The notes beneath the pieces are model-generated. The model worked only from the letters and a program-made list of their open reading frames with translations, ran no database searches and was not told where the DNA came from. The translations under genes were made by a program, and so were the position numbers. A DNA stretch of 64,000 bases from Thiomicrospira sp. GTDB taxonomy: Bacteria; Pseudomonadota; Gammaproteobacteria; Thiomicrospirales; Thiomicrospiraceae. Position 1 is the stretch's first letter, and every line of letters starts with the position of its first letter. Below, piece by piece: positions 1 to 63,929 of the stretch. The stretch spans positions 30,367 through 94,366 of the forward strand of contig NZ_DATCSL010000089.1 of NCBI RefSeq assembly GCF_036568485.1, read 5' to 3'.

Positions 1-586
1 CAGTATAAATGGTTTAGGCTTAGGTTTAGCGACCATGGCCGTTTTGCTCACCTCGAACATTTTGGTTTCGTTGATTCGTCACTGGGTGCCGTCTGAAATT
101 CGCATTCCGGTTTTTATTGCGATTATTGCGGCCGCCGTCACCATTATTGACATGCTGATGCATGCCTACTTTTATACCTTGCACGGCATTTTAGGTATCT
201 TTATTCCACTGATCGTCACCAATTGCGCGATCCTAGCGCGCGCGGAATCTTTTGCCTCCAAAAACTCGCTGGATAAATCAATTGTCGATGCGTTGTTTAT
301 TGGGATTGGGTTTACGATTGTGTTGGTTATTTTAGGCAGTCTGCGTGAACTGGTGGGCAATGGCACGCTGTTTGACCAGGCCTGGTTGTTATTCGGCGAA
401 ACCGCCCGCAACTGGACCTTGCATTTAAGTAGCGATTACACACCCGTATTGCTCGCGATTTTACCGCCTGGGGCCTTTATTGGCTTAGGCTTATTGATCG
501 CGCTAAAAAACTATGCCGATCAACGTCTGAAAAAAACCAAACTATTAAACATTCCGGTTGAGATTAAAGCCTCTTCTACCTCCTAA
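1..586 (+). CDS. rnfE: Rnf/Rsx electron-transport complex subunit E, 5' end cut by the window edge (frame starts at nt 2)
   Basis: The translation (…[16 protein letters not shown]…[18 protein letters not shown]…[11 protein letters not shown]) is collinear with E. coli RsxE. The reading frame is open back to nt 2. Confidence 0.85.
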
Positions 587-594
587 CTTTTTAG

Positions 595-1236
595 ATGAAT
601 AAACTCAAACGCCAACAAATTTTTGATCGTTTAGCGCAAGCGATTCCGGAGCCGGAAACCGAGCTGAATTATTCGACACCTTTTGAATTATTGATTGCGG
701 TGATTTTGTCCGCACAGGCGACGGATAAGGGTGTAAATATCGCCACCGCGAAACTTTTCCCTGTTGCCAATACCCCCGAAGCCATTTATGCGCTCGGCGT
801 GGATGGTTTAAAAAGTTATATTAAAACCATCGGGCTGTTTAATTCGAAAGCAGAAAACATAATTAAAGCCTGTAAAATGTTGGTTGAGCTGCATAACAGT
901 GACGTGCCGCAAACGCGTGAGGAATTGGAAGCCCTGCCCGGCGTAGGTCGAAAAACCGCCAATGTGGTGCTCAATACCGCGTTTGGTCAAATTGCAATGG
1001 CAGTGGATACCCATATTTTTAGGGTATCGAATCGTACCAAAATCGCGCCCGGCAAAAACGTGCTGGAAGTCGAACAAAAACTGCTTAAGTTCACGCCTAA
1101 AGAACATTTAATGGATGCGCATCACTTGCTGATTTTACATGGCCGCTACACTTGCATGGCGCGCAAACCACGTTGCGGCAGTTGTGTCATTTTTGATCTG
1201 TGCGAATTTAAAGACAAAGAAAAATACGTTGAGTAA
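595..1236 (+). CDS. nth: endonuclease III
   Basis: 213 aa with the HhH-GPD motif LPGVGRKTANVVL and a C-terminal 4Fe-4S cluster C-x6-C-x2-C-x5-C (CMARKPRCGSCVIFDLC). It follows rnfE as in enterobacteria. Confidence 0.93.
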   Translation: MNKLKRQQIFDRLAQAIPEPETELNYSTPFELLIAVILSAQATDKGVNIATAKLFPVANTPEAIYALGVDGLKSYIKTIGLFNSKAENIIKACKMLVELHNSDVPQTREELEALPGVGRKTANVVLNTAFGQIAMAVDTHIFRVSNRTKIAPGKNVLEVEQKLLKFTPKEHLMDAHHLLILHGRYTCMARKPRCGSCVIFDLCEFKDKEKYVE

Positions 1237-1254
1237 ATCAAACATAACCCATAT

Positions 1255-1268
1255 CACCAGGCCTGGTG
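1255..1268. repeat. intergenic copy of the iterated palindrome CACCAGGCCTGGTG
   Basis: Exact 14-mer located 19 nt after the nth stop codon. Confidence 0.9.
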
Positions 1269-1287
1269 GTGAAGTTAAAAAATCTTT

Positions 1288-1902: not shown

Positions 1903-1928
1903 AATGAGCCATCCCTATCGCCAAAGGT

Positions 1929-1942
1929 CACCAGGCCTGGTG
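1929..1942. repeat. intergenic copy of the iterated palindrome CACCAGGCCTGGTG
   Basis: Exact 14-mer located 27 nt after the LysE stop codon and followed by CTTTTG. Confidence 0.9.
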
Positions 1943-1973
1943 CTTTTGAATTTAGTCTAAGGAAACGCTATTT

Positions 1974-2408: not shown

Positions 2409-2457
2409 ATCCACAAACCCGCTGACAACATTGAGGTCTAAACCAAAGGAATCAAGT

Positions 2458-2667: not shown

Positions 2668-2693
2668 TTCCGATTAATAAGCTTAAACCCTAG

Positions 2694-2713
2694 AAGCACC
2701 AGGCCTGGTGCTT
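2694..2713. repeat. intergenic iterated palindrome, extended to the 20-bp perfect palindrome AAGCACCAGGCCTGGTGCTT
   Basis: Lies about 27 nt after the stop at 2667. Its right arm overlaps the -35 box of the predicted btuB promoter by 2 nt. Confidence 0.9.
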
Positions 2714-2739
2714 GCAAATTTTCGGCAACCCTCTACAAT
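2712..2739 (+). promoter_or_regulatory. sigma70-type promoter for the B12-riboswitch/btuB operon
   Basis: TTGCAA (2712-2717), a 16-nt spacer, then TACAAT (2734-2739), just upstream of the riboswitch. Confidence 0.5.
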
Positions 2740-3073: not shown

Positions 3074-4840
3074 ATGCAAACTCATTACAAATTCAAACCG
3101 CTAATCGCGGCTCTCTTAATAGCACCAGGCCTGGTGTCGGCTGAAAACAGCCTGAACAATATTGTAGTCACCGCCAACCAAGTCGAACAAGACCTTGAAA
3201 AAGTGACATCCGATGTCACCGTTATTACGGCCGCCGAACTCAGAGCCAAACGAGCTAATTCATTAACGGAAATTTTAAATCAGGTTAACGGCTTAAGCTT
3301 TACCCAAAATGGCGGCTTAGGCACGAGTGCCAGCTTGTATACACGTGGTTCGGATAACCAACGTACACTCATTTTAATTGATGGCGTACGGGCGCAAGAT
3401 CCTTCCAATACCAGCGGTGCCAACCTGTCTGACTTAATGGTGGCGAATATTGAACGCATTGAAATTATTAAAGGCGCACAATCTGGTGTTTGGGGGTCTG
3501 ATGCGGCCGCTGGTGTCATCAATATTATTACCAAGCAATCAACTGACACCCAGATTAATGTTGAACACGGTGCCTATAACACTGGCAAATCGGCCATATC
3601 AACCGGTTTTAAACTCGGCGATGCGCGACTTTTCGTGAATGCCTCCCACCTTACAAGCGAAGGATTTAGTGCCCAAGCACCGGTTGATGAAAACATTGAT
3701 CAGTACGAAAAAGATGGCTATACCCATAGTAATGTGGCATTACGTGCGGTTGTACCTATAGCAAAAAACCAACAGCTTACTTTAGCGCACAATGCCACGG
3801 AAGCGCTCGCTAACTACGATAGCTGGGGGGCTCCTAACGCGATTAAACGCTCAAAAAACCGTACCGACCTAAGCCAGATCAGCTATCAAATAGCCGACAC
3901 CAAACTTACCGCTGAACAGTCCGTATTCAGTAGTAAACAGCTGGATGAAACGGCTCCAGACATTGTGCGTGGACAAACGCGCAGTTTGCAGCTAACCCAG
4001 ACATTTAATGATTTCTTACTGGGTGCCGCTTATAGTAGCAATGAAGCCAACTCAGACAAATATTCTAGTTTTATGGAAGAACAAACTTATACTCGTTCAG
4101 CCTTTGCCAACCACAGCACCCGCTGGCGATATTTAACCTTTAATGAAGCTTTACGTTATGACGATTACAGCAATTTTGGTTCAGAAGTGACCGGAAAACT
4201 GGGCGTTAAATTGGATATCACGACCCATCAATCTTTAGCGGTGAATTATGGTACGGCTTATAACGCGCCCAATATTATTCAAATACTGAATCCTTGGGGC
4301 ACCGCTAATCCCGACTTAACGCCCGAAAAGTCCGCAGAGGCCAGCATCTCTTATGCCCTGCACGGCCTAAGCCTTACCTACTTTGATAAAAAAGTCGAAG
4401 ACTTAATCAAATGGAGTACAGGTAGCCAATACCAAAATGTTGAAGGCACCACTCAAATCAAAGGCGTTGAAGCTGAATATAAACGTCGATTCAACGTTTG
4501 GGGTTTGGGGGTGAATTACACTCACTTAAACACTGAAGATGCCAATGGCGACCCGCTCGCCCGTCGACCTGATAACCAAATTGGGCTGGATTTAAATTGG
4601 TATCCAAACGACCAACTCGACATTAATCTAAACGGTCAATATATCGCAACCCGTGGTGGCGATGTCCATACCGCGACCGAAAACTACAGTGTTTGGAATG
4701 GCGTCATTAACTATCAGATCGATCCAACGGTAAGTGCTTATTTGAAACTGAATAACTTGTTTAACACCTATTACCAAGTCGTCGAAGGTTATGCCACCGC
4801 TGAACGCAGTGCTTATCTAGGTTTAAACGCTCGCTTTTAA
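3074..4840 (+). CDS. btuB: TonB-dependent vitamin B12 outer-membrane receptor
   Basis: 588 aa with a signal peptide, the TonB box NNIVVTANQ, a plug domain and beta-barrel, and a C-terminal …[10 protein letters not shown]12 riboswitch precedes it. Confidence 0.88.
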
Positions 4841-4851: not shown

Positions 4852-6339
4852 ATGACCGCCAGTTTAATGATTCAAGGCTGCACCTCCGATGCAGGCAAAA
4901 CCACCTTAGTGGCGGGATTATGTCGGGTATTGGCAAGGCGTGGTGTCAAAGTCGCGCCGTTTAAACCACAAAATATGGCGCTCAATAGTGCCGTTACCGC
5001 CGATGGGGGTGAAATTGGTCGTGCGCAGGCGTTACAAGCACAAGCCGCCAATATCGTCCCCACGGTTCACATGAACCCAGTATTGCTCAAACCCAATAGC
5101 GATACCGGTGCTCAGGTGATTTTACAAGGTCAGTCGATTGGCAACCTAAATGCCCTCGACTACCATGCTTATAAACCCAAAGCCGCGCAAGCGGTGTTCG
5201 ATTCTTTTCAAATTCTGTCAGCTGACTATCCGCTTATTTTGGTTGAAGGCGCGGGCTCGCCTGCTGAAATCAATTTACGCGAAGGCGATATTGCCAATAT
5301 GGGTTTTGCCGAAGCGGTAGATTGTCCGGTGATTCTGATTGCCGACATCGACAAGGGCGGCGTGTTTGCGCATATTGTCGGCACCCTCGCCTGCTTGTCA
5401 GCATCTGAAAGAAATCGAATCAAGGGGTTTGTGATTAACCGTTTTCGCGGGGATATCGCATTATTGCAAGACGGATTAGATTGGCTGGAACGTGAAACCG
5501 GCAAACCCGTTTTAGGTGTATTGCCTTATTTACACGGCTTACACCTTGATGCCGAAGATGCGGTTGGTTCGTTTGAATATAACCACGAAGCACACGAAGG
5601 TCACGAAGTTTTAAAAGTGATTGCCCCGTTGTTTCCGCATATTTCCAACCATACCGATCTTGATCCGCTGATTCAACATCCTCAGGTGGATTTTACATGG
5701 GTCAAACATAACGAGCCGATTCCGGCGGCGGACTTAGTGATTCTGCCGGGCAGTAAAAGTGTGATGGCAGATTTGGATTGGCTACAAAACCACACTAGCC
5801 ACCAGGCCTGGTTGCCTTATTTGCACAAACATTGTCGTTATGGCGGCAAACTTATCGGCATTTGTGGCGGCCTGCAAATGCTGGGCACACTGATTAACGA
5901 CCCGCACCATATTGAATCTGATCAAACCCAAATACCTGGTCTGGGATTAATGAATTACACCACGACCTTTTACCCGCACAAACAACTCATCAATCGCCAA
6001 GGTTTGTTGCAGCTACCAGGCCTAGTTGAACCAGTCAAAATCAGCGGTTATGAAATCCATCAAGGCCAAACCGACTTTAGCCAATATGCCCCCGCTATCC
6101 ATTGGCAAAACGGCGACACCGATGGCGCCGTGTCAGACGATAATCAAATATTCGCCACCTACTGTCACGGCTTGTTTGACCAACCGCAAGCCCTGCAAAA
6201 CCTGCTTAACTGGGCAGGCCTGGTGCAAGCACAAGCCTTCGACCTCAATCAACAACGCGAACAACAACTCAACCGTTTAGCGGATACGTTAGAGCAGCAT
6301 TTAGCGATGGATAAAATACGGGAACTCATACAGCCATGA
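4852..6339 (+). CDS. cobQ: cobyric acid synthase
   Basis: 495 aa with an N-terminal [10 protein letters not shown] nucleotide loop and a C-terminal GATase-like [10 protein letters not shown]. Confidence 0.92.
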
Positions 6340-9816: not shown

Positions 9817-9904
9817 GGGACAAGTGTAACTCAAAGGGTTACGAAATGCTATTTTACATTAATTAGATTAGTGTGGTCGGCTTTCAAATCTAGTCAAAAC
9901 ACGC

Positions 9905-9944
9905 CACCAGGCCTGGTACTATCACTTCACCACCAGGTCTGGTT
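9905..9944. repeat. two adjacent copies of the iterated palindrome (CACCAGGCCTGGTA and the variant CACCAGGTCTGGTT)
   Basis: Copies at 9905-9918 and 9931-9944, 12 nt apart. They lie at the right edge of the AT-rich islet, downstream of the SPFH gene stop on the minus strand. Confidence 0.85.
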
Positions 9945-9962
9945 ATTCTTGGGCACTAATGT

Positions 9963-10712: not shown

Positions 10713-12121
10713 GTTACATCCTCCTTTTGTGGATTTTCAGAATCCAGCGGCTCAACGCTAAGAATCAGGTTTTTAAGACCGGTGACTTTGACGGTTTGCG
10801 CTTTCTTTAGAGGCTTATGGGTGATAGCTTGCCAATGTTCTCCGTGCATAATGACTGAACCTTTTTCATCAAAATCTTCAATCACCACCGCTTCACTGCC
10901 AATCAAAGCCTCCAAACCGCTGACGATTTGACTACGAGTGGATTTCACCGCCAACCACAATATTGCGCCTAACACCAATACACTCAAAACCGTAAGACTA
11001 ATAATCAAGGATAAATCGATGCCATAAGCCGGTTGATCGGTATCCATTAAAATGATGGAACCGATCACAAACGAGGCAATACCGCCCAGTCCCAATACAC
11101 CAAAACTCGGATCAAACGCTTCAGCAATCATCAACGCGACCCCGAGAAAAATCAGCGCCAAACCAGCATAATTAACCGGCAATAATTGAAAGGCATACAA
11201 AGCCAGCAATAACGCAATCGCCCCCACAATGCCTGGAAAAAAACCACCTGGATTAAAAAACTCCAGAATCAGGCCATAAATGCCGACTAAAAGCAGAATA
11301 TAGGCAATATTGGGATTGGTGATCACACTCAATAATTGACTGCGCCAATCGGGTAAAATTTCGACGACTTGGGCATTAGCGGTATTAAGTTGATGGGGTT
11401 GCTGATGAATAATGACCTTACGGCCATCAAGCTGATTTAATAAATCGGCTCGACTGTTGGCAATTAAATCAATCACATTTTGCTTTAACGCTCCATCTGC
11501 GGATAAACTCGCAGCTTGGCGCACGGCTTTTTCCGCCCATTCGGCATTGCGTCCACGCAGTTGCGCCAAACCTTGAATGTAAGCAACCGCATCATTGATG
11601 ACTTTGCGTTTAGACGGGTCTTGCATGGCCTGCTCTAACCCAGCCTCGTTAGGTGCTTGGGTTTCGCTGGTATTATCTGACGCGGAACTGGGTTTGATGT
11701 CTGGCGGAGAAAACCCGCCGATTTGTACGGGCGTTGCCGCACCAAGATTCGTGCCGGGCGCCATTGCCGCAATATGACTGGCATACAGAATATAAGTACC
11801 CGCGCTGGCGGCTCGTGCGCCGCTGGGTGACACATAGGTTACGACCGGAATGTTGGCATTAGCGATGTTTTTGATAATCGCGCGCATAGCCGAATCTAGG
11901 CCACCCGGCGTATCCATTTTCAGAATAATAAGTTGGGCTTGCTGAGCTTCGGCTTTTTGAATACCGCGTTGAATATAATCCTGAGTGGCTGGGCCGACGC
12001 CGCCCCCAATGCTCAATTCAACCACCAGGCCTGGTGCTTTATTGGCTGAGACATTATTGAAACCCAATAAGGCCATTAAAATAAATGCCCAAAGCGTAAA
12101 ACGGCTTGTAATTCGCTGCAT
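10709..12121 (-). CDS. NfeD-family membrane-bound ClpP-class serine protease
   Basis: 470 aa with a signal peptide, a ClpP-like domain, a multi-TM segment and a C-terminal NfeD OB-fold. It pairs with the SPFH gene in the classic arrangement. Confidence 0.85.
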
Positions 12122-13143: not shown

Positions 13144-14085
13144 ATGAATCACCCTACTAAAAACTCGACACCCGCTAAAAATAAAACGGTTTCATTGGTG
13201 TTAGGCAGCGGTGGCGCACGTGGTTTAGCGCACATTGGCGTGATTCGTTGTTTAGAAGAAAAAGGTTACCAAATTTGCTCGATCTCCGGTTGCTCGATGG
13301 GCGCGTTAATTGGCGGCCTCTACGCCACCGGCAAACTCGATGCTTATGAAGACTGGTTAAAACAGCTCAGCAAAACCGAGTTACTAGGATTAATAGATGT
13401 ATCTTGGAACAGCAGTGGCCTGATTAAAGGCGAAAAACTCTTTAATAAACTGGCCGATTTTTTGGGTGATGTGCAAATCGAAGATTTGGATATCGCCTAC
13501 ACCGCTGTGGCGACCGACATTGATCACGAAAAAGAAGTTTGGCTGCAAACCGGTTTGTTGCATAAAGCGATCCGTGCCTCAATTTCATTACCCATGATTT
13601 TCACACCATATGAACATCATGGCATGACATTGATTGATGGCGGGGTGCTCAACCCAGTGCCGATCGCCCCCACTTTTAGCGACCACAATGATTTAATTAT
13701 TGCGGTGAACTTGGGCGGTAAACCCCAAGACAAGGTGCAAGAGACGCCTGAAAACGACAAGCAAAACTCGTCTGAATCGTCTGATTGGTTAGGTCACCTA
13801 AACGGTATAACCGATACGATTAAAGATTTTTTTGTCGAGAAATTTGGTCAGCAAAAAGACAAGTCCATAGGACTGGATTGGGATGTGCTGGATATCAGTA
13901 ATCGTGCCTTCGACAGCATGCAAAACACCATTGCCCGCCAAAAACTGGCGAGTTATCCGCCAGACTTTACAATTGATATTCCGCGTAATGCCTGCGGCAT
14001 GTTGGAATTTAACCAAGTTGAGCGCATGGTGAAATTAGGTTATGAACAAGCTGAAAAAGCCTTAAGCACCAGGCCTGGTAATTAA
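13144..14085 (+). CDS. patatin-like phospholipase (RssA-like)
   Basis: Contains GSGGARG (oxyanion), GCSMGA (GxSxG) and the DGG catalytic Asp. The last five codons are supplied by an iterated palindrome copy. Confidence 0.85.
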   Translation: MNHPTKNSTPAKNKTVSLVLGSGGARGLAHIGVIRCLEEKGYQICSISGCSMGALIGGLYATGKLDAYEDWLKQLSKTELLGLIDVSWNSSGLIKGEKLFNKLADFLGDVQIEDLDIAYTAVATDIDHEKEVWLQTGLLHKAIRASISLPMIFTPYEHHGMTLIDGGVLNPVPIAPTFSDHNDLIIAVNLGGKPQDKVQETPENDKQNSSESSDWLGHLNGITDTIKDFFVEKFGQQKDKSIGLDWDVLDISNRAFDSMQNTIARQKLASYPPDFTIDIPRNACGMLEFNQVERMVKLGYEQAEKALSTRPGN

Positions 14086-15165: not shown

Positions 15166-16247
15166 TGTCTCAACACGGTGGTCAATTTTTTGAGTTTGCT
15201 CAACGCCAAGGTTTAAGCCCGCAACAAGCTTTGGCGAGAGTATTGGATTTTTCCGCCAGCATTAACCCAAACCAACCGCGTTACGATTTAACCCTGCAAC
15301 CGGCTTTATGGTCACATTATCCGCCACAACAAGCACACGATTTGCGGGTGGCGATCGCTGAAAAGTTTCAGTTAGCTACCGATCATATTCGTTTAACCAA
15401 TGGCATTTCGAGCGCGATTTTGAGTTTGTTTGCGCACTTGCGCCCTCACACCACCCTGCTTTTCACGCCCTTGTACGGCGAATATCAGCGGGCAGCGGCG
15501 TTTTATAGCCAAACCACGATTGAGCTTAAACGCGATTTTAATCAGCCTGACCACCAGGCCTGGTGCTTGCCCGATCTGCCAGCCAATAGTCTGGTGGTAT
15601 TTGTGAATCCCAGCACGCCGGATGGCCATTATTATGCGCCACATAAACTCGAAAAACTGATTGCCCATTGGCGTAAACAAGATTGTTGGGTGGTGATGGA
15701 TGAATCCTTTTTGCCATTTTTGGGATTTGAGCATGATCTCAGTTTTCGCCGATACCTGAAAGACTGGCCAAAGCTCATTATTATGCAATCCTTAACCAAA
15801 TATTACGCTTGTCCAGGTTTGCGTGTGGGTGCGGTGTTTGCGCAACCGGACTGGCTAAAAACTTGGCCACAAGCAGCTTGGCCGATTTCTTATCTGGATA
15901 GTCAATTATTGCAACAAGCGCTACAAGACCCAGACTTTGATAACCACAACCAGGCCTGGTTGTTGAGCGCCAAAGCCGATTTAATCCAACGCCTGCAAAG
16001 TTGTACGTTGCTCAAAAAAGTGATGCCGGGTTCAGCCAATTTTGTATTGGTGCAAACCCAACAGCCGGCTCAACAGATTGCCCAAGCCTTGGAGGATCAG
16101 CAGATTTTAGTCCGAGCTTGTGATAGTTTTGGGGTCGAATTAGGCCAAGATCACCTGCGCATTTCCGTGCAAACCCCGACTCACCACCAACGTTTAATAC
16201 ACGCTTTTAACCAACTTAACCAGGAAACACCCCATGCTATTATTTGA
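15165..16247 (+). CDS. cobD: threonine-phosphate decarboxylase (class I/II aminotransferase fold)
   Basis: 360 aa with the PLP-lysine context QSLTKYYACPGLRVG. It sits between cobO and cbiB. Confidence 0.8.
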   Translation: MSQHGGQFFEFAQRQGLSPQQALARVLDFSASINPNQPRYDLTLQPALWSHYPPQQAHDLRVAIAEKFQLATDHIRLTNGISSAILSLFAHLRPHTTLLFTPLYGEYQRAAAFYSQTTIELKRDFNQPDHQAWCLPDLPANSLVVFVNPSTPDGHYYAPHKLEKLIAHWRKQDCWVVMDESFLPFLGFEHDLSFRRYLKDWPKLIIMQSLTKYYACPGLRVGAVFAQPDWLKTWPQAAWPISYLDSQLLQQALQDPDFDNHNQAWLLSAKADLIQRLQSCTLLKKVMPGSANFVLVQTQQPAQQIAQALEDQQILVRACDSFGVELGQDHLRISVQTPTHHQRLIHAFNQLNQETPHAII

Positions 16248-17160
16248 TCCCAGCTGGATTTTAATCAGCGCCTTATTAGCGATCCTTTTCGACCGATTTT
16301 TTGGCGAATTTATGGGACGTGCGCATCCAGTAATTGGGCTGGGAAAACTGATTAGCTGGTTTGAAAAGCGATATTATGCCGATTCGATTTTACGCGGTGC
16401 CGGTTTAGTTTTTAGCTTGTTGATATTCAGTTTATTGGCCGCCACAATCGTCAGCTTGTTACTGTTTACCCTGCCTTTATGGCTGCACTTATTCATTAAT
16501 GGTTTATTAGCTTCGACCTTGATTGCGCATCGTATGTTGCGTGACCAAGTGGCCGGTCTCATCACCCACCCGCAACCTCAACAAGCCGTGGCGATGTTAG
16601 TGAGCCGCGACACACAAGACCTGGATCAAAGTGATTGTTTTAAAGCGGGTGTCGAAACCTATGCGGAAAATTTAAGCGATGGCGTCATTGCACCGATGTT
16701 TTACTTTTTATTGTTTGGCCTACCAGGCCTGGTTGTTTACAAGGCGATCAACACCATGGATTCAATGGTCGGCTATCGCAACGCACGCTACGAGCGTTTT
16801 GGTAAGGTCGCGGCACGTTTGGATGACGTGGCAAACTGGTTACCGGCTCGCATCACGGCCTTATGGATGGCATTGCTGAGTTCCAAAGTTGGACTGTTTA
16901 GTTGGTGGCGTCAAGCAGGTGGGCATGCCAGCCCCAACGCGGGTTATCCAATTGCGGCGATGGCTTGGCGAATTGGTGCACAGTTGGGCGGCCCCACCCG
17001 CTACTTTGGTGAGCTGACGGATAAACCCTATTTTGGTGATCCACAGTCACCCAAACAACTGGAGGCCAGCCATTTAAAACGGGCGTTAAGTTTAAGCTTG
17101 CCGCTCGACTTAGGCATGATTTTATTGATCTTAATTGGGCTGCTTTATCATGTGGTTTAA
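16234..17160 (+). CDS. cbiB: adenosylcobinamide-phosphate synthase
   Basis: 308-aa CobD/CbiB-family membrane protein (…AHPV…MDSMVGY…GHASPNAG). Confidence 0.9.
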   Translation: MLLFDPSWILISALLAILFDRFFGEFMGRAHPVIGLGKLISWFEKRYYADSILRGAGLVFSLLIFSLLAATIVSLLLFTLPLWLHLFINGLLASTLIAHRMLRDQVAGLITHPQPQQAVAMLVSRDTQDLDQSDCFKAGVETYAENLSDGVIAPMFYFLLFGLPGLVVYKAINTMDSMVGYRNARYERFGKVAARLDDVANWLPARITALWMALLSSKVGLFSWWRQAGGHASPNAGYPIAAMAWRIGAQLGGPTRYFGELTDKPYFGDPQSPKQLEASHLKRALSLSLPLDLGMILLILIGLLYHVV

Positions 17161-30126: not shown

Positions 30127-32648
<2,522 letters not shown>

Positions 32649-44726: not shown

Positions 44727-44748
44727 AAAGCACCAGGCCTGGTGCTTT
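44727..44748. repeat. intergenic iterated palindrome extended to the 22-bp perfect palindrome AAAGCACCAGGCCTGGTGCTTT
   Basis: Lies about 20 nt downstream of the cheW stop on the minus strand and upstream of the EAL/HDOD gene. Confidence 0.9.
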
Positions 44749-45291: not shown

Positions 45292-47403
45292 TTATTGAAA
45301 ACGTTCCACCAGGCCTGGTAGGTCGAGAATCAGTGCAATACTACCATTGCCTGTTATGGTGGCGCCGGCATAGCCACTAACCTTATGTAGCATTAAACCC
45401 AAGGGTTTAATTACCACTTCTTCCTGACCATTGACCTGTTCAACCACCAAGCCAACGCGCTGGTTACCAATCGCTACGATAACCACTTTATCCCCCTGAT
45501 AGCTTTCCTTTTCTACATCCGGTGCTAACCAATCCGATAAGAAAAACAACGGGATACTCTGCTCTCGCAGACGCACCATTTTTTGGCCATCAATATTATT
45601 GGTTTTGTCTGGATTATAGTCGAAAATCTCTTGCACACTGGTTAACGGAATGGCATAACTATCTTCACCAAATGACACCATTAAGGTTGGTAAAATAGCC
45701 AGCGTGAGTGGCACACGAATTCGAATTTGCGTGCCCTGACCCATGGCGGAATCGATATCGATGCTGCCATTGAGTTTTGTGATCATGTTTTTGACCACAT
45801 CCATACCAACACCACGACCAGAAATATCGCTGACTTTTTCGGCCGTTGAAAAACCCGCGGCCATAATCAGCATAAAGGCTTGTTTATCATCGAGCTGTCT
45901 AGCCGCGGCCTCGTCCATTACCCCTTTTTCAACGGCTTTACGACGCAATAAATCCGCATCCATGCCCTTGCCATCATCGGTAATAGACAAGAGGATATGA
46001 TCCCCTTCCTGCTCTGCACCCAATACAATTTTGCCAACTTTGGCTTTACCAGAAGCAAGTCGATCTTCTGGCATTTCTATACCATGATCTACCGAATTAC
46101 GAACAAGGTGAACAAGCGGATCAGCGAGCGCTTCGACTAGGTTCTTATCCAGATCCGTTTCTTCGCCTTTTAACTCTAGCTCAATATCCTTGCCCAGCTT
46201 ACGTGCCAAGTCACGTACCACTCGTGGAAAGCGGCCAAATACTTTTTTCACTGGCTGCATTCGAGTTTTCATAACTGAGGTTTGTAAATCCGTGGTCACA
46301 TGATCTAAGTTTGCAACCGCATTTGAAATCTCTTCTATACTGGCATCCGCTGAGCGCAAAGTTAACAAGCGATTACGCACCAACACCAGCTCACCCACCA
46401 AATTCATAATTTCATCTAGACGACGAGTGTCAACTCGGACTGTTGAATCGCCTGACGGCTTCGCCTTTTCAGCCGGCTCCTCTTTTTTTGCGTCTACTTT
46501 TTTCGCGGGAGAAGCCGGTTTGGCTTTAGGCTTTGCTGGTGCTTCTGTTGGTTTTTTAGCCGGTGTTTTTACTTCAGCTTTAGGTGCGGAAGGTTTGGAT
46601 GTGATTTGTTCACGCTGAGCTAGTAACGCATCAAATTCTTCATCTGTCATATCGCCATCTGGATCAACCCCTTCTGGCAAAGTTAGACTGGGCTCAGCTT
46701 GTTGAACCGTTTGTGAGGTCGCTTTAGGCGACTCTGTCATCAATTGGTCACGCTGAGCTAATAAGGCTTCAAACTCCTCATCCGTTATATCACCATCCGG
46801 ATCAACCCCTTCTGGCAGACTTAAATTGGGCTCGACCACATCACCATCAGAAGAGACCTCAGCGGTTTTTTGCGCACGCTGTGCTAGTAACGCATCAAAT
46901 TCTTCGTCCGTCATATCACCATCCGGATCGACGCCTTCCGGTAAAGTCAACTCTACTTCAACCGATTCGGCTGGCTCTGATGGCATTTCTTCGGCCGTTT
47001 CCTCTGCTACATCTTGATTAGCAACGGGTTTATAGATCGCGTCTAACTCATCTAACAGTTCGGGTTCAGTATCTTCGATTTCTCGTTCGCCATCGTTTAA
47101 CAACCCAATGATTTGACTAACTTTATCGAAGGCTCTAAGAATGACATCGGCCGCATCGGCATCGTAGGCAACTTCGTGATTACGAATTTTATCGAACACA
47201 TTTTCAGCACGATGACAGATTTCAATTAATGGAACCACACCCAAGAAACCTGCGCCACCCTTGATCGTATGAAACCCTCTAAAAATAGCATTTAGAAGAT
47301 CCGAATCATCCGGTGAATTTTCTAAGTCAACCAACTGTTCATTCAGCTGATCTAAGAGTTCAGTGGCTTCGACTAAAAAGTCTTGTAAAATTTCTTCATC
47401 CAC
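45292..47403 (-). CDS. cheA: chemotaxis histidine kinase CheA
   Basis: 703 aa with a P1 HPt domain (FHTIKGG), P3, a P4 HATPase domain (GRGVGMDVV) and P5 (CheW-like). The region where P2 is expected holds three acidic repeats and a P/A/K-rich linker. Confidence 0.95.
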   Translation of the reverse strand: MDEEILQDFLVEATELLDQLNEQLVDLENSPDDSDLLNAIFRGFHTIKGGAGFLGVVPLIEICHRAENVFDKIRNHEVAYDADAADVILRAFDKVSQIIGLLNDGEREIEDTEPELLDELDAIYKPVANQDVAEETAEEMPSEPAESVEVELTLPEGVDPDGDMTDEEFDALLAQRAQKTAEVSSDGDVVEPNLSLPEGVDPDGDITDEEFEALLAQRDQLMTESPKATSQTVQQAEPSLTLPEGVDPDGDMTDEEFDALLAQREQITSKPSAPKAEVKTPAKKPTEAPAKPKAKPASPAKKVDAKKEEPAEKAKPSGDSTVRVDTRRLDEIMNLVGELVLVRNRLLTLRSADASIEEISNAVANLDHVTTDLQTSVMKTRMQPVKKVFGRFPRVVRDLARKLGKDIELELKGEETDLDKNLVEALADPLVHLVRNSVDHGIEMPEDRLASGKAKVGKIVLGAEQEGDHILLSITDDGKGMDADLLRRKAVEKGVMDEAAARQLDDKQAFMLIMAAGFSTAEKVSDISGRGVGMDVVKNMITKLNGSIDIDSAMGQGTQIRIRVPLTLAILPTLMVSFGEDSYAIPLTSVQEIFDYNPDKTNNIDGQKMVRLREQSIPLFFLSDWLAPDVEKESYQGDKVVIVAIGNQRVGLVVEQVNGQEEVVIKPLGLMLHKVSGYAGATITGNGSIALILDLPGLVERFQ
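46612..46950 (-). repeat. three in-frame tandem repeats inside cheA (L[TS]LPEGVDPDGD[MI]TDEEF[DE]ALLAQR)
   Basis: Protein residues 152-176, 194-218 and 240-264. The DNA copies are nearly identical over about 70 nt each. Confidence 0.9.
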
Positions 47404-51562: not shown

Positions 51563-53653
51563 TCACCCATTCCCAACATTTGCTACCACACTAATTTGTC
51601 GATTTTCTGGCACTTCCGAGTAAGCTAAAATATGCAAACTCGGCAAACTGAATTTAAATAAGCGCGCCAATTGTGCCCGAATCTGCGGCGCCACCAATAA
51701 AACGGGAGCCTGACCTTCCATTTCAACTTTTTGAGATTCTTCTTTTAAGGTTCCATGCAAACGTTCTGCCAGGCCTGGTTCAATAGCCAACTGACCATCT
51801 GGCGCACCTTGAGTGGCCTGCAACAATAGCTGCTCCAGCGACGGTTCAAGCGTAATAACCTTCAACTCTGAGTTCATGCCCACAATATCTTGAATAATCG
51901 AGCGCCCCAAGGCTGCGCGAACATGCATAATAAGTTGAGAAGGGTCTCGCGTTTGCCCTACCTTTTCAGAAATGGCCTCAACGATTGTTCGCATATCACG
52001 AATTGAAATCTTTTCTTCTAACAAGCTTTGTAATACCTTCACTAACACAGCAAGTGATAACTGGTCAGGAATCAACTCATCCACCAATTTAGGCGAGGTC
52101 GCTTTTAATTTATCAAGTAATTGTTGGGTCTCATCAAAACCTAACAACTCAAAAGCATAATCTTGAATAACCTGACTTACATGCGTCGCCACGACAGTAC
52201 TGGCATCGACGACGGTATAACCCAGCGCTTGCGCTTGATCACGATCCACAGGATCAATCCAAACCGCTTCGAGACCAAAAGTCGGATCTTTAGTTGGTGT
52301 TCCGGCTATCTCACCATAAACGTTACCAGGGTTAATAGCCATTTCACGATCTGGCATAACCTCACCTTCACCCGAAGGCACGCCCATTAGCATGATTCTA
52401 TACTGGTTCGGTTTTAAGTCCAAATTGTCACGAATATGCACAGGTGAAACTAAAAAACCCAAGTCTTGAGATACTTTACGACGAACACCACGAATTCGTT
52501 CTAACAACTGACCATTTTGAGATTGATCCACCATCGGAATTAAGCGATAGCCGACTTCTAATCCGAGCACATCTACATTTTGAACGTCGTCCCAATCCAG
52601 TTCAGCTGGTTTCGATTCCTCAGCGAAATCCGGTTCTATAATGTTGCTCTGTACCGCCAGTTTTTTCTGTTGGTTCAGGTAAATAAAATAAGCGCCGATA
52701 CCCGCTAACACAGCAAACGACAAGAACGCAACATTTGGCATACCCGGGATCAGACCCATCGCGCCAACAATTCCAGCCGTCACAGCTAAGGCTTGTGGAC
52801 TCGAAAACATTTGCGATTCAAATTGCTCACCCATGTCTTCTTTGTCACCTGATACTCGGGTGACAATAATCGCAGTAGCCGTCGATAAAAGTAATGCCGG
52901 AATTTGTGCAACCAAGCCATCACCAATAGTGAGCAGCGTGTAAACTTCAACCGCCTCACCAAAACTCAAACCATGCTGCCCCACCCCAATCGCAAAACCA
53001 CCAATAATATTGATGACCAAAATAATAATGCCCGCAATCGCATCACCCCGGACAAACTTACTCGCACCATCCATTGAGCCGTAAAAATCGGCTTCCATGG
53101 TAATTTCTTTACGCCGTTCTTGCGCTTCTTCCTGTGTAATCAAGCCGGCATTTAAGTCAGCATCAATCGCCATTTGCTTACCTGGCATCGAATCCAAGGT
53201 GAATCGCGCGCTGACTTCAGCAACTCGTCCGGCCCCCTTAGTCACTACCACAAAATTGATAATCACCAAAATTGCGAAAATAATAATACCAACTGCATAA
53301 TTGCCACCAATAACAAACTCACCAAACGCTTCAATCACTTTCCCGGCGGCATCGCCCCCGTTATGGCCCTCAAGCAAAATAACGCGAGTTGATGCAATAT
53401 TCAGTGACAAACGGAACAAGGTCGCAATCAAAATAACGGTCGGAAAGACGGCAAAATCCAAGACACGTTTAGCGTATACCGTCACCATCAAAACAACTAA
53501 AGAAATCACGATATTAAAGGTGAAGAAAACATCCAACAAAAGTGGAGGAAGCGGAATCGTAATCATGCCTAACAAGGCTAAAATCAATATTGGTGCCCCG
53601 AGCCCACTTTTTAGCCATTTTTTAGCTTGTTGAAAAATTTGCTGAATATTCAT
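51563..53653 (-). CDS. flhA: flagellar type III export gate protein FlhA
   Basis: 696 aa of the FHIPEP family. Confidence 0.97.
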   Translation of the reverse strand: MNIQQIFQQAKKWLKSGLGAPILILALLGMITIPLPPLLLDVFFTFNIVISLVVLMVTVYAKRVLDFAVFPTVILIATLFRLSLNIASTRVILLEGHNGGDAAGKVIEAFGEFVIGGNYAVGIIIFAILVIINFVVVTKGAGRVAEVSARFTLDSMPGKQMAIDADLNAGLITQEEAQERRKEITMEADFYGSMDGASKFVRGDAIAGIIILVINIIGGFAIGVGQHGLSFGEAVEVYTLLTIGDGLVAQIPALLLSTATAIIVTRVSGDKEDMGEQFESQMFSSPQALAVTAGIVGAMGLIPGMPNVAFLSFAVLAGIGAYFIYLNQQKKLAVQSNIIEPDFAEESKPAELDWDDVQNVDVLGLEVGYRLIPMVDQSQNGQLLERIRGVRRKVSQDLGFLVSPVHIRDNLDLKPNQYRIMLMGVPSGEGEVMPDREMAINPGNVYGEIAGTPTKDPTFGLEAVWIDPVDRDQAQALGYTVVDASTVVATHVSQVIQDYAFELLGFDETQQLLDKLKATSPKLVDELIPDQLSLAVLVKVLQSLLEEKISIRDMRTIVEAISEKVGQTRDPSQLIMHVRAALGRSIIQDIVGMNSELKVITLEPSLEQLLLQATQGAPDGQLAIEPGLAERLHGTLKEESQKVEMEGQAPVLLVAPQIRAQLARLFKFSLPSLHILAYSEVPENRQISVVANVGNG

Positions 53654-60871: not shown

Positions 60872-60926
60872 TGTATATTTACCCTTTCTATAAAACGATA
60901 AGGCTCAGACGCTTATCTTATATAAC

Positions 60927-60940
60927 AACCAGGCCTGGTA
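60927..60940. repeat. intergenic copy of the iterated palindrome (AACCAGGCCTGGTA)
   Basis: Lies 19 nt downstream of the MCP stop on the minus strand and upstream of motA. Confidence 0.85.
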
Positions 60941-60958
60941 CCGATGCCTAGATGCTAT

Positions 60959-61972
60959 TTAGTGTTTAATAACATTGGTTAATGCGTCTTGAGCAGATTT
61001 TAACTGATTTAAACTGGTTGCAATATCATGCAAGAAATCACTGACCTTGCCGGCTTGAGTTTGCGTATTCTCTACACGCTCTTGACCATGTTCCATGACC
61101 TGAACAGCGTTTCGGGCACGCTTCTGTAACTCTTCAATAATCGTTTGAATTTCGGTTGTCGCCTGCTGAGTTTTACCAGCCAATATTCTAACCTCATCCG
61201 CAACGACCGCAAACCCCCGGCCATGCTCACCCGCACGTGCGGCTTCAATCGCAGCGTTAAGTGCTAGTAAGTTTGTCTGTTCAGCAATGTCCCGAATTAA
61301 CACCAAAACTGTGCCGATATTGCTACTATCGGATTCGAGCTGTTTAATCACCTCGGTTGCACGCGTTACTTCTTCAGTTAAGCCACTCACTTCGGTTATT
61401 ACGTTTTCAGCCGAAGACATACCCGCCGCTGAGCCGTGGCTCATACGTTCAACCGCCTGTTCAACTTGCTCAGACAATTCAAAAAGCTCACTCATATCCA
61501 GGCCATTTTCAGCAGCCGCACGTACTTCTTCTGTTTCTTCCTGCGCACTGCTTAAGGCGGCATTCAAATTGTTTACTTGTTGTTGCAAACCTTCAATTTC
61601 AGCTTGATAGTTAGACACCTCTTTTGAACGTTGGTCTAACTTTACTTGCGCCTGCTCAAGCAGCTGATTAAGTGCTTTTAATAATTTTGGGTTCGTATTT
61701 GGTGCTTTCAAAACCTGATCAAAGCGATCATCACTGCCTACTTGGTTTAGTTCATCAACCAACTCAGACTGCTCACAAACACCCGCCTTATTACACCATA
61801 ATAAGTAGACTAATGCACTAACGATTACAGCTGTCACCCCGACGGCAACCGCAACAAACCCAATCATCGAGCCGGTTGTAATATCAGTGCTCGCTATACT
61901 GATTGCGGGCAAACCTAGCCCACCTATAAACAGTCCTGTGCTAACGGCTTTCATTTGTCTACTCCTAAGCAT
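60959..61972 (-). CDS. short methyl-accepting chemotaxis protein without a recognisable ligand-binding domain
   Basis: 337 aa with an N-terminal hydrophobic segment and a coiled coil. The MCP hairpin-tip signature is [29 protein letters not shown], with only about 85 aa after the tip. Its start overlaps the fliK stop by 8 nt. Confidence 0.85.
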
Positions 61973-63929
61973 AAAAATCGATCATATTATCTGTTTGTTT
62001 TTTGACTGAAGGTGACTCAACCTCCCCTTCACTTGCAGTATTTGAAACGCTGGCTGCATTGGTTTTTGCTGATTCTGCTGTTTGATCTTGGTTGGATTGT
62101 TCAAAAGCATCCTCATCCTCTACCTTAACCTCATCAAAACTGATACCTGCTTCTTCTAGCATTTCTTTTAATCGTGGGATAGCCGCCTCCAATGCTTCAC
62201 GTGTCGCACCATGCTGGGCGGTCATTGATACCGTCACCATTTGATCTCGATCTAACTGTAAACGCAATTGGATCGGTCCAAGCTTCTCTGGATTAAGACT
62301 AATTTGTGCCTGTTGCATCTGCTGGTTCGCCATAAAAACGATACGCTTACCCACTGACTGAGCCCACTGAGGGTGACGCAAAGGATATGCTATTGAAGCC
62401 AAGGCCGGTGCGCTTGACTTACGTTCCGCTCCGGTTGATGCGACACCTAGTAATTCCAATTCGCCCTCAGCATTGGCGGCTTTATACTTCACATCAGAAA
62501 CTTTTAAAGCTTCTTGCTGTTGCTGCGCCCACTGATCCTTTAAATTTAAATTCATTGCTTGCTGTTGCAAATTAGACTGGTTCAACTGTTGTTGAGACGT
62601 TTGCACTGGCGCTTGAATATCGTTTAATGGCTTGGAGGTTGCCTCATTTGTCGCCGCTTTAAGCTGAACTTTGTCAGCTAACGCGTTAGGATTAGCTGGC
62701 TGAGCTTGACGATTTAGCGCCGCTTGCGCCATGCCAGCTAAACCCTGCGGCGCGGCTTGCTGGGCAGCTTGTGAATTCACAGGAGTAAAAGCGCTCGCTT
62801 GATTGAGCGCTGAGTTAAGGCCTTCTTCAGCTTCCAGAAGATTCATCTCTAAGTCAGGATTTAGCAACTCTTTGCCGTCATCGGCCTTAACTGCTGGGGC
62901 AGGCTGGTTTATGACTTCATTCAACTGACTAGGGATCTGTAAAGTTTGCACAAAACCGACAATCTCCTCCAGACGAGCCAAGTCTTCTTCACTCAGGTTC
63001 TCAACAGCCAAAGCATCGGAAGATAAAAGCTCGGTCAAAGCCTCCAAGGTTTCAAGTCCGTCCAAATCACTGAATTCAGTTTCAACTGACCTTAAACCGG
63101 CAAGATTAGCCTGGTCGGCAGACACACTATCCAATAATTTTTGCGCGCGTGGCAATAAATGTTTTTGAATGAAATCTGTCAGTAATGGCGAATCATCGGA
63201 TGCTGGATCTAATTCAAACTGAGCCTTCAAACCTTGACTCTGCGCCATATCCAACTCAAATTTCACCGATGGCTTCTCTTGTTTGAGAAAAGCCACGAAT
63301 TGCTGCAGTGAATCATTAAACTCGGCTACCGCTAAATGTTTCTGCTCAGGCGTTTCGGCATCTTTTAAGGCCGCAAGCATCGATTGCATGGAGGCTTTAA
63401 GTTCATCGAAGCGCTCGTTTAATTCAGATAGCACTTGAGGAGTTAACTCGTCTGAAGGCACATCTTCAAGCGCCTCAGAAACAGCAACCAGGCCTGGTTG
63501 CTGTTCTAGCGTTGTATCTAGCATCGCATCTAAATCAGCCAACTCCGAAACCAATTCAGCATCAGCCCCTTCAGATACCGAAAGACTTTGTGGCACATCT
63601 CCTGTAAAAGAGGTGGCCAAACCCTGCTGAGCCAACCAGCTAGAAAGCTGCTCGAACATGCTCTCGTCGGATTCCAAATCCACATCAAAAGACAACTTCT
63701 CAGCAAAAGCTTGCAAAGATTGGGGGTCTACTTTTTTAAGGTCTGACAAGGCCGCTAAGTCTAAGTTGCCTTTTTGATACTCCGCCATCATGAGTGCACC
63801 CAACTGGGTAGAGAAATCACTCTGAGCCTCTGGGGCCGCATCCGATAAGAGTAAAGATGGGGTTTCAGGACGATTGATAAACCCAAACATAGGGGGGGTT
63901 GCTCTTGTGTCCGGTGCTGTGTTCAGCAT
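61965..63929 (-). CDS. fliK: flagellar hook-length control protein FliK
   Basis: 654 aa, Q/A/E-rich and low in complexity, with a C-terminal Flg_hook domain (…[29 protein letters not shown]…). Confidence 0.85.
63480..63505. repeat. 26-bp perfect palindrome AACAGCAACCAGGCCTGGTTGCTGTT inside fliK
   Basis: Centred on the iterated-palindrome core at 63488-63497. It encodes EQQPGLVAV on the minus strand. Confidence 0.9.

Follow-up and report, generated by a model that had tools for sequence, protein, structure and literature searches.

Why does a single palindrome recur so often in this DNA, and why is it read in genes mostly in two of its three possible frames? The 64-kb window (the whole stretch of Thiomicrospira DNA analysed here) contains 25 exact copies of the word CCAGGCCTGG, against 0.02 expected from shuffles; 22 of these extend to the 12-mer ACCAGGCCTGGT. 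Frames were assigned from ORFs, with gene calls from a rough custom ORF caller. Nine copies are read as QAW, nine as PGL and one as TRPG; six are non-coding. Every peptide listed in the preliminary description of this DNA is reproduced by these frames, and its gene names agree with NCBIfam for all 17 nameable genes. NCBIfam is the basis of the gene names from rnfE to fliK, except for the NfeD-like ORF, which matches no NCBIfam family at 1e-10. The copies are as follows; G016 is a word-free relative.

376..385, plus-strand gene rnfE/rsxE: C-CAG-GCC-TGG, DQAWLL (G016 orthologue DQAEL)
1257..1266, intergenic: 21 nt past the stop of ORF 595-1236; 8-bp hairpin with a GGCC loop
1931..1940, intergenic: 29 nt past the stop of ORF 1288-1902; hairpin then UUUU, terminator-like
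2699..2708, intergenic: upstream of btuB, within the 18-bp palindrome AGCACCAGGCCTGGTGCT
3125..3134, btuB: CCA-GGC-CTG, APGLVS (G016 TPAYAE)
5802..5811, cobQ: QAW frame, HQAWLP
9907..9916, intergenic: 47 nt downstream of the stop of minus-strand gene 9963-10712; pairs with a one-mismatch copy at 9933-9942 (fold -22.8 kcal/mol, z -2.0)
12025..12034, minus strand, NfeD-like gene (470 aa): PGL frame, APGLVV
14069..14078, C-terminus of patatin (RssA-like): ACC-AGG-CCT-GGT, TRPG, STRPGN then stop; the window's only AGG-frame copy
15554..15563, cobD: QAW frame, HQAWCL
15950..15959, cobD: QAW frame, NQAWLL
16723..16732, cbiB: PGL frame, LPGLVV
18127..18136, minus strand, cobS: PGL frame, APGLVL
18940..18949, minus strand, cobC: QAW frame, NQAWWA (G016 IQRTFE)
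20015..20024, minus strand, cobT: PGL frame, QPGLVV
20211..20220, minus strand, cobT: QAW frame, HQAWIS; 10-mer core only, outer T lost
32040..32049, minus strand, hisZ: QAW frame, YQAWLA (G016 EYQAWL)
36950..36959, minus strand, miaA: QAW frame, RQAWCY (G016 YRQMWR)
38083..38092, minus strand, mutL: QAW frame, HQAWWS, in a variable linker region (Burkholderiaceae MutL STHVLS/SATVLS; G016 AYQAHF)
42122..42131, minus strand, tsaE: PGL frame, PPGLVV (G016 EKGTVL)
44733..44742, intergenic: 25 nt past the stop of minus-strand ORF 44767-45276, in the 22-bp palindrome AAAGCACCAGGCCTGGTGCTTT; 11-bp stem, z -2.1
45309..45318, minus strand, cheA: PGL frame, LPGLVE; stop nine codons later
51769..51778, minus strand, flhA: PGL frame, EPGLAE (G016 also has PGL)
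60929..60938, intergenic: 21 nt past the stop of minus-strand ORF 60959-61972
63488..63497, minus strand, fliK: PGL frame, QPGLVA (G016 MDGKGE)
6016, cobQ: one-mismatch copy CCAGGCCTAG
18548, cobS: one-mismatch copy
51090, flhF: one-mismatch copy

Two window sites, including the one in hisZ, have the same peptide in word-free G016. The last three entries had been cited as deviating copies that keep the peptide. They do exist, but genome-wide only 24 of the 205 coding one-mismatch copies keep it; peptide retention is therefore anecdotal.

The two frames had been described as used almost exclusively. The bias is real (a uniform split is rejected at p=5e-28) but weaker genome-wide, where PGL, QAW and RP copies number 244:238:57 (45:44:11), or 154:147:40 in homology-validated genes only. 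The 57 RP copies are not confined to gene ends but also occur within ordinary genes, and the window's AGG-frame share of 1/19 is compatible with the genome rate (P(<=1)=0.39). The ACC-AGG-CCT-GGT frame requires AGG, which at 1.2 per 1000 is less frequent than any other codon examined; CCA-GGC-CTG and CAG-GCC-TGG need ordinary codons only. With the word's own codons masked, codon usage predicts PGL:QAW:RP shares of.503/.478/.019, against.45/.44/.11 observed. In genus g6 (GC 54%) the counts are 41:80:10 (.31:.61:.08), against a predicted.33/.66/.006. For the PGL:QAW ratio, observation and prediction agree in each of the two genomes (p=0.78 and p=0.92).

Since codon usage predicts frame shares in two genera, the frame bias reflects codon cost, with the scarcity of AGG as its driver; frame choice in genes is proportional to the cheapness of each frame's codons. 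The AGG frame is over-used rather than specially avoided: its counts are 2-6 times those of the multiplicative codon model here (12-mer, 10-mer) and 8-13 times in G015. The penalty that the model puts on a rare codon is therefore too heavy. At the 8-mer level the frame prediction fits G015 poorly, which indicates that flank preferences matter. Codon-driven frame bias has been described before, in DNA uptake sequences and in cyanobacterial HIP1. As a codon-cost outcome, the 9:9:1 pattern tells nothing about the function of the word. The outcome named beforehand as refuting the frame claim, a genome-wide tally in line with codon usage, has essentially come about. What survives of the preliminary interpretation is pressure at the DNA level, not the frame pattern as a special feature.

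In the 2.35-Mb genome of the sulfur bacterium Thiomicrospira there are 767 copies of the CCAGGCCTGG core, 670 of them as the exact 12-mer, and 261 one-mismatch 12-mers; the word is the top k-mer at k = 8, 10 and 12. Codon usage gives an expectation of about 1.7 core copies in coding DNA, and over-representation is at least 280-fold in each of the three frames. About 70% of copies are in genes; 228 are non-coding or partial. The inner eight bases are nearly invariant, and one-letter deviations cluster at the outer positions.

This abundance is visible in the proteome. QAW occurs 326 times against 45 expected (7-fold), and 276 of the 326 are spelled CAGGCCTGG. Overall, the excess is 7- to 18-fold for QAW, PGLV and TRPG and about 118-fold for HQAW; reversed control peptides show no enrichment in proteome counts. 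Such strong enrichment would be expected if selection acted on QAW and PGLV themselves, but three unrelated peptides are enriched only when one DNA word spells them. Nearly all of the excess is word-spelled; other spellings give 50 QAW against 45 expected and 164 PGL against 198. These non-word counts refute selection on the peptides, as do the 30% of copies that are non-coding and the conservation of synonymous sites within the word, and its probability is close to nil.

Comparison with relatives points the same way. Among 1219 shared orthologues, this genome and word-free G016 have 187 and 35 QAW, 63 and 2 HQAW, and 133 and 8 PGLV, respectively. The identical peptide core is found in G016 at 22 of 140 PGL, 6 of 136 QAW (28 of 276 for both) and 4 of 34 RP sites. 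Because the word-free relative lacks the word peptides at orthologous positions, the orthologue comparison does not refute DNA-level pressure. G015 shares the exact 10-mer at 20.4% of sites (1.5% in controls). Among sites with a tripeptide conserved between genera, 67% retain the exact DNA word, compared with 5.8% of controls (odds ratio 32, p=2e-26); G016 carries another peptide at 24 of 28 shared sites. G015 was compared over half its genome and G016 (GC 59%) is the single word-free outgroup, and the direction of change is therefore read mainly from the excess of peptides.

Pressure at the DNA level thus overrides protein sequence, given a word-spelled peptide excess and synonymous positions conserved between genera beyond controls. 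Base substitution in native DNA creates the copies, within genes as well as in spacers, and their sequence is kept exact at the DNA level. It is inexact to say that the word is accommodated wherever QAW or PGL can be tolerated: most of these peptides are new creations, often built on a W or P that was already there. They occur in genes of lower conservation and in local stretches that vary slightly more.

Palindromic copies, some of which extend to 20-40 bp between genes, and the single Y1 transposase gene of this genome might suggest a relic or target of a mobile element (REP/REPIN with a RAYT transposase, or a MITE). However, in-gene copies keep the reading frame in conserved genes with no length change, and word sites have diverged in nucleotide sequence just as much as controls (4.63 vs 4.64 differences per 10 bases). 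Word spacing looks random genome-wide, with a gap distribution close to exponential (coefficient of variation 1.05 in a 130-contig assembly). Y1_Tnp is absent from word-rich G002, G006, G008, G009 and G015 and present in word-free G012, G013, G019 and G020. The lack of co-occurrence with Y1_Tnp and the substitution-only origin effectively refute this explanation, which is left with a very slim chance.

Word density is 0.33-0.41 copies per kb across genes and spacers, and convergent spacers are far richer than divergent ones (2.73/kb vs 0.36/kb). Intergenic copies lie a median 28 nt past stop codons, and their palindromic arms extend by a mean of 3.1 bp, against 1.3-1.8 bp in genes. The position past stop codons and the longer arms, together with the U-runs after some intergenic copies, would fit an RNA-level hairpin or terminator module with in-gene copies as spill-over. 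This is unlikely: 70% of copies are in genes, and there the 12-mer by itself makes a stem of only 4 bp; the z-scores of the folds are modest (-0.5 to -2.1); a T-rich tail follows only 78 of the 227 intergenic copies; and copies also occur in divergent, promoter-side spacers.

The invariant core in the family is the 8-bp palindrome CAGGCCTG; its flanks are species-specific (dialects), extending the word to 12-20 bp. Across 95 family genomes the core is strictly on or off, with either 236-1193 copies or background. Both states are found within genera g3, g4 and g6. The core is at background throughout genera g2, g5 and g7 and in 28 species of g3, g4 and g6; decayed remnants persist in some 'off' genomes. 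No published report of this word, or of its on/off spread among sister species, was found.

A DNA uptake sequence like USS/DUS is a possible, though doubtful, alternative. Competent cells would favour DNA with the word and recombination would spread copies; the frame bias and the effects on the proteome would then be by-products, as they are in Haemophilus and Neisseria. The density, the excess just 3' of genes, the terminator-like hairpins formed by some intergenic copies and the species dialects all fit, as does a 69-kb F-type conjugative element with zero copies, which also marks the word as a signature of native DNA. Codon-following frames, tripeptide enrichment and a preference for poorly conserved genes match those reported by Findlay and Redfield 2009 (PMC2817400). 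ComEC is present, but equally so in all 25 genomes, word-rich and word-free alike. TfoX is found in none of the 25, and ComP_DUS gives no match in a search whose controls were also silent and thus uninformative. A keyword search of the literature listed no report of natural transformation in Thiomicrospira. The word is moreover palindromic and on or off among congeners; to our knowledge, known uptake sequences are not palindromes and are family-wide.

The word consists of two abutting CCWGG sites (CCAGG+CCTGG) and also contains GGCC and AGGCCT. A GC-rich palindrome with nested restriction-type sites, an on/off distribution and outer-position deviations, as for HIP1 (PMC4390886), could derive from methylation-dependent mismatch repair (Elhai's model) or from Dcm/Vsr very-short-patch repair. 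The enzyme searches make this improbable. PF00145 C5 methyltransferases are found in four of the 15 word-rich genomes searched (G000, G008, G021, G024), and the matches in this genome and G021 are no more than weak or fragmentary; the 11 without a match include seven from the window's own genus. Vsr is found in only one of 25 genomes, and PF01555 is absent from this genome and several other word-rich ones. No conserved [DNS]PP[YFW] methyltransferase candidate was found among this genome's proteins without a G016 match; those with the motif are island-located, RlmJ/Dam-like/type I/IIG-like by sequence reading, or lack a clear G015 counterpart. Overall, no C5 or N4/N6 methyltransferase, Vsr, RAYT, ComP or TfoX co-varies with the word. 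Two word-rich genomes have in common 81 genes missing from a word-free genome; 67 of these (at least 35% identity) were read through and none stood out as a DNA-binding reader.

The probable explanation is that ACCAGGCCTGGT is this species' form of a lineage-specific, hyper-abundant word, with frames set by codon cost and with a reader and a one-way copy-building process behind it. A protein would read the double-stranded word; it is probably a dimer, since the site is two-fold symmetric. A one-way process dependent on this reading would build and maintain copies; candidates are biased repair or conversion and uptake-biased recombination. Loss of the reader would let the word decay to background; the on/off pattern among congeneric species would follow. 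Intergenic copies would accumulate just 3' of genes, where constraint is likely lowest, and longer arms there could double as hairpins or terminators. Copies may be maintained by drive or by per-site selection.

REP/REPIN-RAYT systems share with the word palindromic repeats and extended intergenic hairpins. They are defined by extragenic hairpins and a RAYT gene; in contrast, most word copies (70%) are in genes, in frame and made by substitution, and no RAYT co-variation is seen, with Y1_Tnp uncorrelated. In E. coli, Dcm/Vsr very-short-patch repair biases CCWGG-related words, and CCAGG+CCTGG would give a repair-driven route to over-representation. Word enrichment is orders of magnitude larger and specific to an 8-12-mer. 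Vsr (1/25) and C5 methyltransferases (PF00145, 4/15) are missing in most word-rich genomes.

The closest analogues of the word are HIP1 and USS/DUS. HIP1 (GCGATCGC) and alternate highly iterated palindromes are known from cyanobacteria (Elhai 2015, PMC4390886; Xu et al. 2018, PMC5861425), and HIP1 one-letter deviations concentrate at the outer positions (PMC4390886). Both HIP1 and the word have an 8-bp GC-rich palindromic core, hundreds-fold over-represented in genes (all three frames) and spacers; both are conserved at orthologous sites beyond controls and nearly absent from some related genomes. The word differs in occurring in Gammaproteobacteria (Thiomicrospiraceae), in its random-looking gap lengths (in the 130-contig assembly), in its longer species-specific extension and in its strong enrichment just 3' of genes. 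It also has no co-occurring methyltransferase (C5 and N6/N4 families tested) or Vsr; a HIP-type motif would be expected to come with a cognate methyltransferase in every word-rich genome.

For the USS of Pasteurellaceae and the DUS of Neisseriaceae, frame bias is explained by codon preference (Findlay and Redfield 2009, PMC2817400); their encoded tripeptides are enriched, and poorly conserved genes and positions are preferred (PMC2817400). In contrast to these sequences, the word is a perfect palindrome that is on or off within one genus, and its genomes have no TfoX or detectable ComP-type receptor (ComP_DUS controls being silent). Tripeptide enrichment is 7-fold for QAW, against about 2-fold for USS/DUS. 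The word nevertheless carries the USS/DUS genomic signature: about one copy per 1-3 kb, with about 30% of copies in the roughly 11% of DNA that is non-coding, a 3'-end and terminator location, absence from recently acquired DNA, species dialects, codon-following frames and enriched peptides.

The palindromic word CCAGGCCTGG occurs in 25 exact copies in the window, against 0.02 expected from dinucleotide-preserving shuffles, and 22 of these extend to the 12-mer ACCAGGCCTGGT. The assembly that holds the window as contig C89 (G000; 2.35 Mb, 44% GC) encodes a MutL that shares 89% identity with the MutL of a Thiomicrospira MAG. Its most frequent 8-, 10- and 12-mers are all forms of the word: CAGGCCTG (957 copies), CCAGGCCTGG (767) and ACCAGGCCTGGT (670). 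One-mismatch neighbours of the 12-mer number only 261; the changed base is mostly one of the outer two on either side, and CAGGCCTG in the middle hardly varies. A weaker palindromic extension, AA[CG]CA...TG[CG]TT, flanks the word in all site categories. Among one-letter variants, AGCAGGCCTGGT/ACCAGGCCTGCT (which gives the peptide xAGLV or, read from the other side, QAC) is by far the commonest, with 88 copies in G000; it may be an alternative spelling that is also accepted, or a neighbouring dialect.

The distribution of the word was surveyed in 95 genomes of Thiomicrospiraceae; this family is the whole of its order, and the order level therefore adds nothing. The core CAGGCCTG is strictly bimodal, with 47 word-rich ('on') and 48 word-free ('off') genomes.

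Copies of CAGGCCTG per genome in genera g1 to g7 of Thiomicrospiraceae
g1 (the window's genus): 840-1136 in 11 of 11 genomes
g6: 426-1010 in 11 genomes; 2-33 in 11
g4: 236-1193 in 21 genomes; 5-95 in 16
g3: 411, 96 and 6
g2, g5 and g7: background level

Counts of the 10- and 12-mer are far more variable between species than those of the 8-mer; for example, 8-, 10- and 12-mer copies are 900, 27 and 16 in genome G077 and 840, 263 and 181 in G006. The flanks are thus species dialects around the core CAGGCCTG. In G015, a word-rich genome from another genus (g6), the dialect is TTGACCAGGCCTGGTCAA, as opposed to AA[CG]CACCAGGCCTGGTG[CG]TT in G000. Some 'off' genomes contain an excess of remnants with one or two mismatches (109 vs 32 for the control in G052; 66 vs 8 in G012), which can be read as traces of repeated loss of the factor maintaining the word, followed by decay. 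G042 is the only g2 genome with a small excess (40 8-mers, 17 10-mers and 14 12-mers), with many copies on very short contigs; possible reasons are a contaminated bin, transfer in recent times, and a word that is at an early or a late stage. G016, a word-free relative in the same family, has a repeat of its own containing AAAAAGTCGGGGACCCC (about 77 copies), which may be a REP-like element.

The word is kept exact across genera. G000 was compared with the available half of G015 (1.16 Mb), at a median protein identity of 60%. An identical 10-mer stands at the orthologous G015 place for 32 of 157 aligned coding copies (20.4%), compared with 1.5% for control 10-mers from the same genes. Where the tripeptide is conserved between the two genomes, the exact word is retained in 67% of cases vs 5.8% for other conserved tripeptides (odds ratio 32, p=2e-26). 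The G016 peptide differs at 24 of 28 sites common to G000 and G015, so these look like shared derived sites. The word is probably older than the split of the two genera, as judged from these alignments and a single outgroup, which does not fix polarity.

Genes of G000 were called with a simple and rough ORF and codon-score method, giving 2118 genes and 88.6% coding DNA; 434 of the 2118 genes carry at least one copy. Reverse complementation leaves the word unchanged, so it can be read in just three codon phasings: PGL (CCA-GGC-CTG), QAW (C-CAG-GCC-TGG) and RP (ACC-AGG-CCT-GGT, read TRPG). The peptides listed in the preliminary description were recovered one for one: the window has nine QAW, nine PGL and one TRPG copy (the patatin C-terminus, STRPGN*), with six copies non-coding, and the one-mismatch copies cited there are present. 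NCBIfam bears out the gene names rnfE/rsxE, btuB, cobQ, cobD, cbiB, cobS, cobC, cobT, hisZ, miaA, mutL, tsaE, cheA, flhA, flhF, fliK and patatin; no NCBIfam family matched the nfeD ORF at 1e-10.

It had been proposed that two of the three frames are used almost exclusively. Genome-wide there are 244 PGL, 238 QAW and 57 RP copies, with 228 non-coding or partial. The bias is real, since a uniform split is rejected (p=5e-28); exclusivity is not, since RP accounts for 11% of coding copies and for 11.7% in orthologue-validated genes. One RP copy among the 19 in the window is an unremarkable draw at the genome rate (P=0.39). RP copies cannot be put down to mis-calls or gene ends alone; most lie deep within long, well-scoring genes, and their share is equal in homology-validated genes.

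Frame shares were predicted from an independent-codon model, using codon frequencies with the word's own codons masked. For G000 the predicted PGL:QAW:RP shares are.503:.478:.019 (10-mer) and.49:.45:.055 (12-mer); RP is low because AGG is rare (1.2 per 1000 codons). PGL and QAW are observed in the predicted ratio (p=0.78), and the AGG frame is 2-6 times commoner than predicted (p=6e-8 for the 12-mer, 5e-25 for the 10-mer). G015, with 54% GC and different codon usage, provides a second test. Here the prediction is.33:.66:.006 and 41:80:10 copies are observed (.31:.61:.08); once more the two main frames stand to each other as predicted (p=0.92), and copies in the AGG frame exceed prediction (p=9e-9). 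By the preliminary description's own terms, a genome-wide tally with all three frames in proportion to codon usage would speak against its claim. Such a tally is essentially what both genomes give; the sole departure, over-use of the AGG frame, is in the direction opposite to that claim. The frame pattern is a codon-cost effect. In uptake sequences, too, the cheapest codons decide the frame, and the word is a new instance of this known behaviour.

The effect of the word on proteins is large. QAW occurs 326 times in G000 proteins vs 45 expected from composition; 276 of these are spelled CAGGCCTGG, and the other 50 are close to expectation. PGL occurs 427 times (198 expected), 263 of them spelled by the word. 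Excess is also found for TRPG (57 vs 4.4), PGLV (240 vs 13.7) and HQAW (124 vs 1.0), and the reversed control peptides WAQ, LGP and GPR show no enrichment in the same proteins. The whole G016 genome (1.67 Mb, one core copy) served as the word-free comparison, giving 1219 reciprocal-best orthologue pairs at a median identity of 60% with what is a single, GC-rich outgroup. Over the same aligned residues, G000 and G016 have 187 and 35 QAW, 63 and 2 HQAW, 133 and 8 PGLV, and 33 and 6 TRPG, respectively. The core peptide is equal in G016 at only 22/140 PGL, 6/136 QAW and 4/34 RP orthologous positions; among window sites that can be aligned, it is shared at 2 of 11 (hisZ and flhA). In MutL, Burkholderiaceae have STHVLS at the position of HQAWWS in G000.

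Per-residue identity at word sites and, as a control, at matching residue types in the rest of those genes
P-G-L-V:.60/.45/.43/.34 at word sites;.74/.77/.64/.54 elsewhere
H-Q-A-W:.25/.18/.38/.57 at word sites;.51/.32/.57/.68 elsewhere
T-R-P-G:.15/.21/.50/.47 at word sites;.47/.65/.74/.77 elsewhere

W and P are retained relatively well, which suggests that a copy is often built round a W or P already present. Since the excess peptides are spelled by the word and G016 mostly lacks them at orthologous positions, the earlier interpretation of pressure at the DNA level in competition with protein constraint stands. This pressure overrides protein sequence, and the word, as a feature of the DNA, has re-coded proteins. 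Word-bearing genes are less conserved than others (median identity 52.9% vs 62.9%, p=8e-20), and the local flanks of the word vary slightly more than their genes do on average (.477 vs.520, p=6e-6). Unusual nucleotide divergence at word sites is ruled out (4.63 differences per 10 bases vs 4.64 for control 10-mers). Word density has a very weak relation to a codon-bias proxy (rho 0.07).

Non-coding DNA, 11% of the G000 genome, has 30% of the copies, and these are located at the 3' ends of genes. In G015, the non-coding share is 46%.

Density of copies by location in G000
Convergent spacers: 2.73 per kb
Tandem spacers: 0.83 per kb; the median distance from the upstream stop codon is 28 nt
Divergent spacers: 0.36 per kb, which is also far in excess of chance
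Coding DNA: about 0.26 per kb

Palindromic arms are longer in intergenic copies, some of which form 8-11-bp hairpins with U-tails, with modest z-scores. At 9880-9962 of the window, an exact copy (9907) and a one-mismatch copy (9933, CCAGGTCTGG) with 16 nt between them form a long hairpin (-22.8 kcal/mol, z -2.0); it lies just 3' of gene 9963-10712, on the margin of an AT-rich islet.

Spacing of copies is roughly random (coefficient of variation 1.05), the exceptions being long deserts. The largest, 69 kb at C48:1-68953 of G000 and outside the window, encodes F-type TraC and TraN, which points to recently acquired conjugative DNA; type I restriction HsdR-like and SNF2-like helicase genes were also judged by eye to be present. 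The desert resembles a conjugative element, integrated or on a plasmid, that arrived too recently for copies to have arisen in it. The 34-kb contig C14 is also without the word; by eye, it has HsdR-like, heavy-metal-ATPase-like and CcmF-like genes.

Candidate families for the origin or recognition of the word were compared with its presence in 25 'on' and 'off' genomes. A Dcm/Vsr or methyltransferase-linked origin is rejected for the families covered, as C5 (PF00145), Vsr (PF03852) and N6/N4 (PF01555) families do not co-vary with the word in these genomes. A RAYT/REP origin is rejected likewise, as the Y1 transposase (PF01797) does not co-vary with it in the same set. TfoX is absent from all 25 genomes. 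ComEC is present in all of them, 'on' and 'off', and is therefore uninformative. ComP_DUS gave no matches in the 'on' and 'off' genomes searched, and the controls were silent too.

Among G000 proteins with the motif IV pattern [DNS]PP[YFW], no conserved DNA-methyltransferase candidate was found; those without a G016 match are in islands, are RlmJ-like, Dam-like methylase-like or type I/IIG-like on our own reading of their sequences, or have no clear G015 counterpart. A 629-aa open frame at C47:6978-8411 matches the C5 DNA-methylase profile only weakly and in separate pieces (E=1e-10 and 4e-4). It adjoins a Dam-like gene (C47:4763-5543), and codon-usage scores of the genes around it are poor, for which reason the region is probably an island. 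A crude phylogenetic profile gives 81 genes present in G000 and the fetched half of G015 and absent from G016. Inspection of 67 of the 81 (at least 35% identity) revealed genes of metabolic, membrane or sigma/anti-sigma appearance and no evident DNA reader.

By inference, the word owes its maintenance to a sequence-specific protein and to a process that is one-way and drive-like. Drive is favoured over selection at each site because copies are randomly placed, sit at low-cost sites, cost amino-acid changes and vanish completely in sister species. It is a real possibility, at somewhat under even chances, that CAGGCCTG is the target of a dedicated but dispensable Thiomicrospiraceae reader (a receptor for uptake, or else an enzyme for conversion/repair). 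Such a reader would have written about 1000 copies per genome and re-coded about 20% of proteins, and would have been lost several times within genera, with subsequent decay of the word to background. If this is true, the clean contrast between culturable 'on' and 'off' sister species would render the system the first of HIP/USS type with a reader open to discovery by simple gene-presence association and then to genetic tests; the 47 'on' and 48 'off' genomes in one proteobacterial family are a direct comparative route to the protein. In these proteomes, QAW, PGLV and TRPG are DNA artefacts and not functional protein motifs, and hundreds of proteins of chemolithoautotrophic sulfur oxidisers have been re-coded by the word. 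The interest lies beneath an ordinary frame bias, in a spelling kept across genera at about 60% protein identity and present in about 1000 copies or none within one genus.

The literature searched contains no description of the word in the context of bacterial genomes, and no link between Thiomicrospira and uptake sequences or an iterated genomic palindrome. To our knowledge, the purpose and mechanism of HIP1, the highly iterated palindrome of cyanobacteria, have been unsettled for decades, and uptake-sequence receptors are known in Neisseria only. The word behaves like both HIP1 and the uptake sequences (USS/DUS) of Pasteurellaceae and Neisseriaceae. It departs from HIP words, for which a cognate methyltransferase has been proposed, in that none of the methyltransferase families searched (C5, N6/N4) tracks it, and from known uptake sequences in its palindromy and its on/off pattern.
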